Positions 55,083 through 55,665 of a stretch of 64,000 nucleotides of DNA are shown here, piece by piece. Below the pieces are notes generated by a model. It had not been told where the DNA came from and did not search any database. It saw nothing but the letters and a program-made list of their open reading frames with translations. The stretch's first letter is position 1, and every line of letters starts with the position of its first letter. Location: the NCBI GenBank assembly GCA_040772125.1, contig JAXGYS010000003.1, forward strand, positions 1,947,073 through 2,011,072, read 5' to 3'. Origin of the DNA: Bacteroidales bacterium. GTDB lineage: Bacteria; Bacteroidota; Bacteroidia; Bacteroidales; VadinHA17. Both the position numbers and the translations under genes were made by a program.

Positions 55083-55091
55083 CTTTCCAAG
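55083..55091. repeat. 9-bp target-site duplication, right copy (CTTTCCAAG)
   Basis: See the left copy. Confidence 0.85.
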
Positions 55092-55152
55092 GAGGGGTGG
55101 CCCGTGCAGTGATTTTGTACGGGCCGGAATTCGATTCCGGGCCGGGGTGGTT
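55091..55152. repeat. left arm of the imperfect inverted repeat flanking the DUF559 gene
   Basis: GGAGGGGTGGCCC...TTCCGGGCCGGGGTGGTT. The outer 13 bp and inner 18 bp are the exact reverse complement of the right arm (55589-55651). An internal perfect hairpin CCGGAAT-TCG-ATTCCGG is present. Confidence 0.8.
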
Positions 55153-55179
55153 AATCAGTTGTTATCTTACTTTACTCTG

Positions 55180-55560
55180 ATGACAAACAAAAAGCTCTTT
55201 AACAGAAAATACCTCAAGCCGGTAAGGTCATTCCTGAGGAACAATTCTACCTCTGCCGAAGCTGTCTTATGGACATATTTAAAATCAGCCAGCGTTGATG
55301 GCAGAAAATTCAGAAGGCAGCACAGTATAGGAAAATATATTGTTGACTTTTATTGTCCGTCAGAAAAGCTTATCGTTGAACTTGATGGAGAACCTCATGG
55401 TGATTATATCGAGATTGAAAAAGATAAAATAAGGGACAGGTTTCTTGAGGGTCTCGGCCTTACTGTACTTCGATTTGAAAACAGGCTGGTATTTCAGGAT
55501 CCCGAATACATACTTAAAGAAATAAGAAAAGCTTTTAAAGGAGAGGATAAGTGTATTTAG
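55180..55560 (+). CDS. DUF559 endonuclease-domain protein (Vsr/restriction-endonuclease-like fold)
   Basis: 126 aa from the ATG at 55180 with STSAEAVLWTYLK...RKFRRQHSIGKYIVDFYCPSEKLIVELDGEPH. The longer track ORF from 55066 reads through the IS end and the GC-rich repeat arm and is unlikely to be real. Confidence 0.8.
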   Translation: MTNKKLFNRKYLKPVRSFLRNNSTSAEAVLWTYLKSASVDGRKFRRQHSIGKYIVDFYCPSEKLIVELDGEPHGDYIEIEKDKIRDRFLEGLGLTVLRFENRLVFQDPEYILKEIRKAFKGEDKCI

Positions 55561-55588
55561 ATATTGAGAAACTAAACTCCATAGCTAT

Positions 55589-55665
55589 AACCACCCCGGC
55601 CCGGAAGTAGATCCCGTCCGGTTCACTAAACAGTAGCCGGGCCACCCCTCCTTGCGAAGGAGGGG
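55589..55665. repeat. right arm of the inverted repeat plus terminal hairpin
   Basis: AACCACCCCGGCCCGGAA...GGGCCACCCCTCC, then the hairpin CCCCTCC-TTGCGAA-GGAGGGG (55645-55665). Confidence 0.8.

Follow-up and report, generated by a model that had tools for sequence, protein, structure and literature searches.

A DUF559 nuclease gene between inverted triplex-type repeats in a Bacteroidales genome and the recurrence of this arrangement across bacterial phyla

We analysed a 64-kb stretch of a Bacteroidales genome (the window; 64,000 nucleotides, positions 1,947,073 to 2,011,072 of contig JAXGYS010000003.1) which contains a gene encoding a 126-amino-acid DUF559 protein. An initial annotation, made from the sequence alone, had described this gene as packaged between structured inverted repeats capped by hairpins. 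The open reading frame (ORF) is present at the expected place and matches the Pfam family PF04480 (E=4e-32; score 110.8 bits, cut-off 20.6), the match covering positions 9-107 of the 109 in the profile. Two repeat units are inverted around the gene with both of their G-rich strands directed at it, and each arm is identified by its sequence pattern as one class II purine-motif intrastrand triplex repeat of the BoxC/PIT/TMECO kind, in a variant with a long connector. The left unit is severed by an insertion sequence (IS), and the units and gene together lie within a larger inserted element bounded by terminal inverted repeats (TIRs) (Table 1). The earlier description had missed two things, namely that the inner box GGGGTGGT of each arm mirrors the purine strand of the terminal hairpin and that the inserted segment reaches from 53212 to 55877.

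Table 1. Features of the DUF559 locus, in window coordinates
Feature	Position	Strand	Remarks
Left 38-bp imperfect direct repeat AGAATTGTGACAGGAATTGACGTCTGAGAATAATATTT	53174..53211	+	34/38 identical to 55878-55915; single in the L211/L212 empty site
Outer-left part of inserted element	53212..53515	+	TIR CCTGACTTGT at 53212-53221, continuing imperfectly to ..AATTAGTGC
Left triplex unit, 5' half	53516..53530	+	Pyrimidine stem CCCCTCC, loop TTTCCAA and first G of the purine stem; severed by the IS
9-bp target duplication CTTTCCAAG	53522-53530 and 55083-55091	+	Made by the IS
IS4-family IS	53531..55082	+	Transposase 53646-55082; NCBIfam IS4-family transposase model, E=7e-101
Left triplex unit, remainder	55091..55152	+	Purine stem, T, connector hairpin and mirror box
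Parts of the left unit	55091-55097; 55098; 55099-55143; 55144-55151		Purine stem GGAGGGG; T; connector hairpin; box GGGGTGGT
Spacer, A/T-rich, 27 nt	55153..55179	+	Between mirror box and ATG
DUF559 gene, 126 aa	55180..55560	+	Pfam match; Vsr-like PD-(D/E)xK nuclease fold
Right triplex unit	55589..55665	-	Pyrimidine stem, loop and purine stem 55665-55645; box GGGGTGGT is the reverse complement of 55590-55597
Outer-right part of inserted element	55666..55877	+	Ends in TIR ACAAGTCAGG at 55868-55877
Right 38-bp imperfect direct repeat	55878..55915	+	Empty-site homology resumes at 55916, upstream of tRNA-Pro 56000-56075

The reverse complementarity of the arms was found as first described, at an outer 13-mer (GGAGGGGTGGCCC, 55091-55103 on the plus and 55639-55651 on the minus strand) and an inner 18-mer (TTCCGGGCCGGGGTGGTT, 55135-55152 plus and 55589-55606 minus), each occurring once per strand. 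The outer pair by itself is within chance if two mismatches are permitted; for the inner 18-mer the chance expectation is 0.02, and two matches occurred in none of 100 shuffled sequences. As longer inverted repeats the arms show 91 % complementarity over 22 nt and 79 % over 38 nt. Both hairpins noted earlier were recovered, CCGGAAT-TCG-ATTCCGG in the left arm and the right cap CCCCTCC-TTGCGAA-GGAGGGG (55645-55665), the latter being the sole such hairpin in the 64 kb with none in shuffles, and the right unit is the only intact one detected in the window by our unit finder. Excision of the IS does restore the left hairpin CCCCTCC-TTTCCAA-GGAGGGG, and loci L003 and L004, whose proteins share 93 % amino acid identity with that of the window, carry an intact hairpin at this place.

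Read on the G-rich strand, each unit runs from a pyrimidine stem (Y-stem) CCCCTCC(T) through a loop, a purine stem (R-stem) (A)GGAGGGG, a T and a connector hairpin closed by GC pairs to a third-strand box GGGGTGGT. The ends of the left connector pair as GGCCCG/CGGGCC and enclose the CCGGAAT hairpin at 55124-55140, and the right connector is closed by GGCCCGG/CCGGGCC. In both arms the Watson-Crick stem CCCCTCCT/AGGAGGGG is 8 bp long, where the class definition calls for a homopyrimidine/homopurine stem of at least 7 bp, and the box is the mirror image of the R-stem AGGAGGGG at 8 of 8 positions. The third segment thus stands 3' of the purine stem as an antiparallel mirror compatible with G·G-C and A/T·A-T triads, as the class requires. 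The box mirrors the R-stem and therefore a single strand could fold as a hairpin with the third segment antiparallel on the purine strand; the triads predicted for the window arms would be G·G-C and T·A-T.

The terminal hairpin differs between lineages (CCTTCCC/GGGAAGG, CTCCCCC/GGGGGAG, TCTCCCC/GGGGAGA) and the inner G-rich box co-varies with it each time. In each of over 15 R-stem variants the box reads as the purine strand reversed, not reverse-complemented (GGGAAGG is answered by GGAAGGG, AAGAGGGG by GGGGAGAT, GGGGAAGG by GGAAGGGG and, in the window, AGGAGGGG by GGGGTGGT), and the mirror rule of G opposite G-C and A or T opposite A-T is kept in about 20 sequence variants. A perfect 8/8 mirror box lies within 90 nt of 151 of the 168 inward-facing hairpins with a following T, against 20 of 190 in the outward orientation, and direct-repeat and permuted target boxes seldom match the hairpins. 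Opposite G-C the third strand carries G, and opposite A-T it carries T in 357 and A in 244 instances. On this comparative evidence the covariation is that of an antiparallel purine-motif triplex code (G·G-C, A·A-T, T·A-T) and agrees with the purine motif alone. In 50 % of connectors, versus 7 % of shuffles, the ends pair in a stem of at least 4 bp, and connectors in other members measure 1-5 nt, as in BoxC, or 10-30 nt.

Other structural readings of the arms were considered. A pyrimidine-motif triplex on the C-rich strand was rejected, as the C-rich third strand would put A opposite A-T in 58 % of instances, as was a G-quadruplex, each unit having only two long G-runs, and an RNA motif was abandoned once the mirror covariation emerged. 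RNA folding of the arms gave modest z-scores of -1.2 to -2.4 under a Watson-Crick model, which cannot represent a triplex. A scan of 52500-57000 against Rfam returned tRNA-Pro and chance miRNA-like matches at E up to 1, with none for the arms.

The units share with BoxC (Bachellier et al.), PIT (Hoyne/Maher 2000) and TMECO-ITxF (Holder et al. 2015, PMC4666352) elements the order of Y-stem, loop, R-stem, second loop and reverse-Hoogsteen segment, and like them are dispersed through intergenic DNA, rich in G/C, frequently arranged as inverted pairs and tied to local rearrangement. They differ from BoxC and TMECO in carrying CCCCTCC/GGAGGGG/GGGGTGG in place of CCCTCNCCC/GGGNGAGGG, the pattern CCCTCNCCC N3-6 GGGNGAGGG N3 GGGNGAGGG being absent from the window arms and present beside E. 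coli ycjD, and from all three in the 45-nt structured second loop and in having an associated gene, of which the published work has none. With 8-bp stems the first loop of the window units is 5 nt long and within published limits (1-6 nt for ITxF, 0-10 nt in Hoyne et al.), whereas the second is a structured connector of 46-47 nt (45 nt past the T), outside the published short-loop criterion. Published searches would have missed such units because a 45-nt connector exceeds their loop limits (≤6 nt; ≤10 nt). The class II Y-R-RH motifs BoxC, PIT and TMECO belong to the intrastrand triplex motifs reported to be abundant and conserved in prokaryotes; TMECO oligonucleotides fold into triplexes by circular dichroism and nuclear magnetic resonance, TMECO loci are prone to rearrangement, and the repeats are without an associated gene class, transposase, integrase or mobility gene (PMC4666352).

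To place the window gene among its relatives we examined 83 loci chosen by DUF559 homology, comprising 80 genome loci encoding relatives and 3 obtained by exact-protein look-up. The initial annotation had proposed a search for other DUF559 genes with like flanks, and these are common: a unit lies within 160 nt of the gene in 72 of the 83 loci, in several phyla, and similar flanks surround proteins of only 50-75 % identity in Bacteroidales, Flavobacteriaceae, Cytophagales, Chitinophagales, Acidobacteriota, Planctomycetota and Ignavibacteriales. The density of strict units is 4.87 per kb within 250 nt of the ORF ends versus 0.061 per kb more than 700 nt away, an enrichment of about 80-fold, or about 20-fold per intergenic region by our own estimate. 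Where both sides are flanked (38 loci), 34 carry inverted pairs, 25 of them convergent like the window and 9 divergent, and 4 carry tandem units. The distance from mirror box to ATG is mostly 9-50 nt; downstream, the box mostly follows the stop codon at 0-30 nt, with abutting or overlapping ends. We observed, then, a strong association of DUF559 genes with these units at conserved spacing. It could be argued that there is no functional link, and that triplex-type repeats, being abundant dispersed repeats in many genomes, simply pile up in intergenic DNA so that a small gene lying between two such regions would acquire them by chance. The enrichment over distal flanks and per intergenic region, the consistent orientation and spacing, and the recurrence of the association independently in E. 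coli all speak against this, as does the window, whose 64 kb contain just two units, one on either side of the DUF559 gene, against none in shuffled sequences; we strongly disfavour such a coincidence and regard it as barely credible.

The same spacing raises the possibility that the units control or insulate the expression of a potentially toxic nuclease, by blocking transcription, by stabilising the mRNA through hairpins or by serving as an autoregulatory operator. Boxes ending 9-50 nt before the ATG and stop codons that abut or overlap the downstream unit speak for such a role; the box also overlaps TTG, a candidate -33 element, and some ORFs enter the box and end in ...INHPG. The Bacteroidales copies (the window and the L001-L010 upstream sequences) keep TTACTTT(T)A about 10 nt 5' of the ATG, which may represent a Bacteroidetes-type -7 promoter box. 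Against this, AAAGTT or TGGCCC, and no T-run, comes after the hairpins, which so lack an intrinsic-terminator signature, the arms match nothing in Rfam, PIT elements were without promoter or terminator activity in earlier work summarised in PMC4666352, and most units lie far from any DUF559 gene. The covariation moreover keeps a third strand for which a terminator or stabiliser has no need, and it obeys a purine-motif triplex code which does not form in RNA (PMC4666352), which disfavours the regulation by RNA structure suggested in the initial annotation. Control of expression by the units is in our judgement very improbable.

The association extends in a looser form to E. coli. In K-12 the TGA of the DUF559 gene ycjD falls inside a degenerate BoxC hairpin, which is followed by a partial duplicate of the gene's own 3' end and then by a full TMECO (NC_000913.3, 1351204-1351760). 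This TMECO, one of 23 in E. coli K-12 (PMC4666352), is no. 9 of Holder Table 1 (1,351,239-1,351,204); it lies on the same strand as ycjD, 168 nt downstream, and no other TMECO occurs from 0.62 to 3.05 Mb, a 2.4-Mb part of the chromosome. Among 5,426 complete genomes queried for ycjD and TMECO, ycjD was present in 3,377. In a spread sample of 60 E. coli genomes, all 37 with ycjD had 12-26 TMECO places; of the 23 that lack the gene, 12 had 1-5 places and 11 had 12-19. These counts agree with the published distribution of ycjD, a gene carried by phylogroups A/B1/C but replaced in B2 (PMC12817139), and with published TM counts of 29 in strain 55989 and one in IHE3034 (PMC4666352). The window protein itself scores 73.5 bits against PRK09767, the YcjD equivalog, below the cut-off of 218, and by this measure is a member of a related subfamily and not a YcjD orthologue.

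Units are also found in the absence of the gene, as became clear from a search of metagenomes for the unit pattern made without regard to genes. It returned 90 units, of which 73 stood in loci that lack DUF559 and one or two lay next to a DUF559 gene, which answers the question raised in the initial annotation of whether the arms occur alone. Most units in this sample are solitary and others form convergent or divergent pairs or tandem arrays, including convergent pairs with cores of 20-130 nt (L086, L118, L159 and the L081 arrays). The derivation of such pairs by internal deletion was considered and rejected, as the L081 cores share nothing with the gene region except the unit itself. The unit types of dispersed and gene-flanking units agree within a locus in 23 of 27 cases versus 9.3 expected, a match to which we give little weight because most of the units belong to the same arrays. 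The description of a discrete, symmetric cassette unlike a housekeeping gene thus stands, but its arms are not unique and belong to a widespread class of dispersed repeats that is mostly gene-less. Conversely, the objection that the arms might simply be a REP-type repeat (repetitive extragenic palindrome) unrelated to DUF559 is right as to the dispersed class, but not as to the gene, to which the units are strongly tied.

Viral contigs were likewise searched. Merely 10 distant relatives were found among 2.9 million, and carriage by phage was set aside on this count; strict units lie within about 260 nt of the gene in 5 of the 10, and in three (L216, L218 and L223) a convergent pair brackets it. 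The layout of a gene between inverted units therefore recurs in Bacteroidota, Acidobacteriota, Planctomycetota, Ignavibacteriales and virus-classified contigs, with the looser form at E. coli ycjD/BoxC.

The expectation of a Vsr/restriction-endonuclease-like fold was borne out by structure prediction. The AlphaFold2 model of the protein (pLDDT 83.8) matched 3hrl (E=1.4e-6), 3r3p (E=1.4e-4) and, weakly, 1vsr (E=0.065) in Foldseek, and the model is consistent with the restriction-endonuclease-like fold common to 3HRL, I-Bth0305I and Vsr. PDB 3HRL is the only solved sequence relative (E=6e-20), and 3r3p is the catalytic domain of the homing endonuclease I-Bth0305I (TM 0.78 normalised to the target). 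There are 34 invariant columns among relatives of 63-95 % identity; D56, E67, D69 and H73, candidate active-site residues, never vary among 34 aligned sequences. The protein resembles the EDxHD/Vsr-like homing endonucleases (I-Bth0305I, PMC3239194; 'fractured genes', PMC2677866) in its nuclease fold and in being encoded by a small, selfish-looking gene, but the gene lies outside any intron, intein or split gene and the protein is without the extra DNA-binding domains of I-Bth0305I. With Vsr it shares superfamily and clan, many sources labelling these proteins 'very-short-patch-repair endonuclease', and the nicking chemistry of Vsr is a plausible model. It differs in the weak structural match, in having no adjacent gene for a partner cytosine methyltransferase and in its repeat-cassette context. 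A role in defence was considered and dropped, the PADLOC models giving no real match beyond a 49-residue nuclease-core match to DpdF at 22 bits.

The explanation we favour, and to which we assign about an even chance, is that the DUF559 protein is a structure-specific nuclease cognate to the folded triplex repeats. It would bind the triplex or hairpin formed when the G-rich strand becomes single-stranded, for example at a replication fork, and would nick at or close to the junction of triplex and connector. Repair or recombination at the nick would then keep, duplicate and spread the units and copy the gene lying between two of them, a relationship like that of REP elements and their associated tyrosine transposases (RAYTs) but with a PD-(D/E)xK nuclease and a DNA triple helix as its parts. 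Mixed flank types argue against sequence-specific recognition and are compatible with structure-specific recognition. The broader proposal, that DUF559 proteins including YcjD are triple-helix-specific nucleases which with class II repeats (BoxC/PIT/TM and long-connector) form a widespread two-part system of this kind, is more tentative, and we consider it possible but rather doubtful. No link between DUF559 or YcjD and these repeats was found in the literature, subscription-only papers being outside our coverage.

Several observations weigh against these proposals. Binding and cleavage of the repeats by DUF559 are purely what we infer. A PD-(D/E)xK nuclease is to our knowledge incapable of strand transfer, and because of this any spread driven by DUF559 would need host repair. 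The remaining 63 kb of the window contain no dispersed units, and at this locus the system looks like a self-contained cassette and not like a gene serving a population of repeats. Unit types differ between left and right in 20 of the 38 loci flanked on both sides, and the unit counts are not independent events because the loci were picked by DUF559 homology and many units lie in arrays. In E. coli the correlation of ycjD with TMECO number is partial, confounded by phylogeny and no more than suggestive; O157 strains have no ycjD yet retain 12 copies. Triplex formation in cells is unproven because TMECO was unprotected in dimethyl sulphate footprinting in vivo (PMC4666352). Finally, the boundaries of the inserted element, described below, lie at its outer TIRs, and a separate mechanism may mobilise it in this lineage.

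This element became apparent from a relative in which it is missing. In the locus of L211/L212, whose rhamnosidase is 96 % identical, the sequence matching the window from 55916 begins 45 nt past the rhamnosidase stop, so an empty site, which the initial annotation had suggested seeking, does exist. The window insert measures 1,105 bp minus the IS and has imperfect TIRs of about 30 nt (CCTGACTTGT...AATTAGTGC), and the empty-site junctions fall at these outer TIRs, about 300 and 210 bp outside the hairpins, and not at the triplex units. The history of the locus is thus one in which a 1.1-kb TIR-bounded element was inserted relative to a close relative and the loop of its left hairpin was later hit by the IS. 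The 38-bp imperfect direct repeat at its borders differs from the short exact target duplication of a TIR transposon or miniature inverted-repeat element, and no cognate transposase was identified for it; the repeat could stem from staggered nicks or an att-like site, or the 'empty' strain could have suffered a deletion. Integration linked to the tRNA was rejected, as 12 related loci contain none.

These boundaries bear on the suggestion that DUF559 is merely cargo with a host role, for example in repair or restriction, within a non-autonomous element with CCTGACTTGT/ACAAGTCAGG TIRs that a transposase or recombinase moves in trans, the triplex units being incidental. The junctions of the empty site lie exactly at the outer TIRs, the outer ends recur elsewhere (L003, with two copies A and B, one of which has an internally deleted gene; L004; L206), and two IS elements mark the region as an insertion hot spot. 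Transposases nevertheless do not normally leave a 38-bp imperfect direct repeat as their target duplication, no transposase with matching ends was identified, and the outer element is lineage-specific whereas the core of unit, gene and unit is conserved across phyla. The association in E. coli and Acidobacteria would be left unexplained, and we hold a passenger role of this kind to be quite improbable.

Bacteroidales copies in unrelated contexts are homologous from hairpin to hairpin only, over about 565-590 bp, and two copies in one metagenome-assembled genome (L005 and L006) are 91.7 % identical over 565 bp. In Flavobacteriaceae the DUF559 locus is syntenic over 5 kb. The earlier idea of a mobile or homing-type cassette is partly supported by the empty site, the hairpin-to-hairpin homology and the 3r3p neighbour, but the ends of the observed indel are the outer TIRs and not the hairpins. 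In its explicit form it posits a selfish cassette whose free-standing Vsr-like/EDxHD endonuclease cuts gene-less convergent pairs, the units acting as homology arms through which break repair copies the gene in, so that the repeats would be its target and would not be maintained by the protein. The catalytic domain of I-Bth0305I is the closest functionally characterised structural neighbour, gene-less convergent pairs do exist (L086, L118, L159, L081), homology between copies in unrelated contexts runs exactly hairpin to hairpin, and amino acid identity of about 70 % across phyla suggests horizontal spread. Yet we found no filled and empty pair bounded at the units, the one empty site ending 300 and 210 bp beyond them; the units face outward in nine loci and are of different types on the two sides in the 20 of 38 noted above; the gene is syntenic and so vertically inherited in Flavobacteriaceae; and the cores of gene-less pairs hold no remnant of the gene. 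Homing of this kind we consider unlikely, and we return to a nuclease cognate to the folded repeats as the preferred explanation.

That explanation invites comparison with the REPtron, the combination of REP and RAYT reportedly treated by Nunvar in 2010, Bertels and Rainey in 2011 and Ton-Hoang in 2012. REP elements comprise many gene-less repeats with rare RAYT genes embedded among them. In both systems a structured repeat flanks one small gene in inverted orientation and is also dispersed, without the gene, in many copies that occur singly, paired or in mosaic arrays, and the gene is vertically inherited in some lineages. The differences are a PD-(D/E)xK nuclease here versus an HUH Y1 transposase, a triple-helix signature versus a simple hairpin with GTAG, and the lack of dispersed units in the window's other 63 kb, gene-less copies being common in other genomes and metagenomes. 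Repeats of the BoxC/PIT/'TM' group, on record since the 1990s, form triplexes in vitro and are markers of unstable loci but have no known function, protein partner or mechanism of spread, and DUF559 is a very large family also without known function, so that their specific association gives each a candidate explanation. If true, the two-part system would explain both the origin and spread of triplex repeats and the function of DUF559, and would be a third pairing of structured repeat and enzyme beside REP/RAYT and IS200/IS605. The covariation over about 20 variants constitutes comparative evidence of selection on a DNA triple helix in bacteria.

The IS is a later arrival in the left hairpin loop and stands outside the cassette proper. 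Its inverted ends are CTAATCTTTATACAC/GTGTATAAAGATTAG, and the locus L002 holds a non-autonomous derivative of about 600 bp with the same ends (~1805-2400; 9-bp duplication CTTTTGAAG) and L006 a related IS end (~2393-2410). All three occupy the identical position in the loop of a unit's terminal hairpin, the 9-bp duplication spanning the loop in the window and L002, and from these sequences the IS lineage appears to target the hairpin loop of the triplex unit. An exact look-up of the transposase for further insertion sites returned this locus alone. The loops of REP elements and bacterial interspersed mosaic elements (BIMEs) are targeted by IS1397, ISKpn1 and IS621; the three insertions described here resemble these in sharing one position in a repeat loop, but the window IS is from another IS family and hits another repeat class.

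A number of further observations concern the copies and their surroundings. More than 5,800 close relatives of the window protein were found, the contigs carrying them being mostly ~0.6-2 kb, with some 90 % clusters of 70-144 members, a pattern that would be expected of an assembly-breaking repeat-flanked or multi-copy element. Mosaic tandem arrays of two or three unit types with periods of ~76-200 bp lie beside DUF559 genes in L023 (2860-3860), L026, L064, L075 and L081 and recall BIME mosaics. The ORF in L023 extends into a CCACTCCTGCTACCCCTGCT-type repeat, and those of proteins P0034 and P0086 run on into the downstream mirror box, their C-terminus ...INHPG being encoded by ATCAACCACCCCGG. 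In L133 (~4400-4900, minus strand) a unit-adjacent DUF559 homologue is apparently split by a structured GC-rich insert of ~150 nt in the coding region. In L003 (1-544 and 545-776) the second copy of the outer element has an internally deleted DUF559 gene, lacking the equivalent of window 55153-55381, and abuts an apparent 3' part of the IF-2 (infB) coding sequence, with the intact copy 230 nt on. L004 (119-350) carries a tandem duplication of a 154-bp segment comprising the left arm, 49 nt of left flank and the start of the ORF (~25 nt). With two or three right arms also present in L001, the arms seem prone to duplicate locally. Downstream of tRNA-Pro in the window a long hairpin (56106-56162), the source of the chance miRNA-like Rfam matches, precedes about five tandem 76-bp repeats (56179-56560). 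A second transposase ORF of 407 aa (56771-57994) lies 0.7 kb downstream of tRNA-Pro, and we therefore regard the interval from the rhamnosidase gene to tRNA-Pro as an insertion hot spot.

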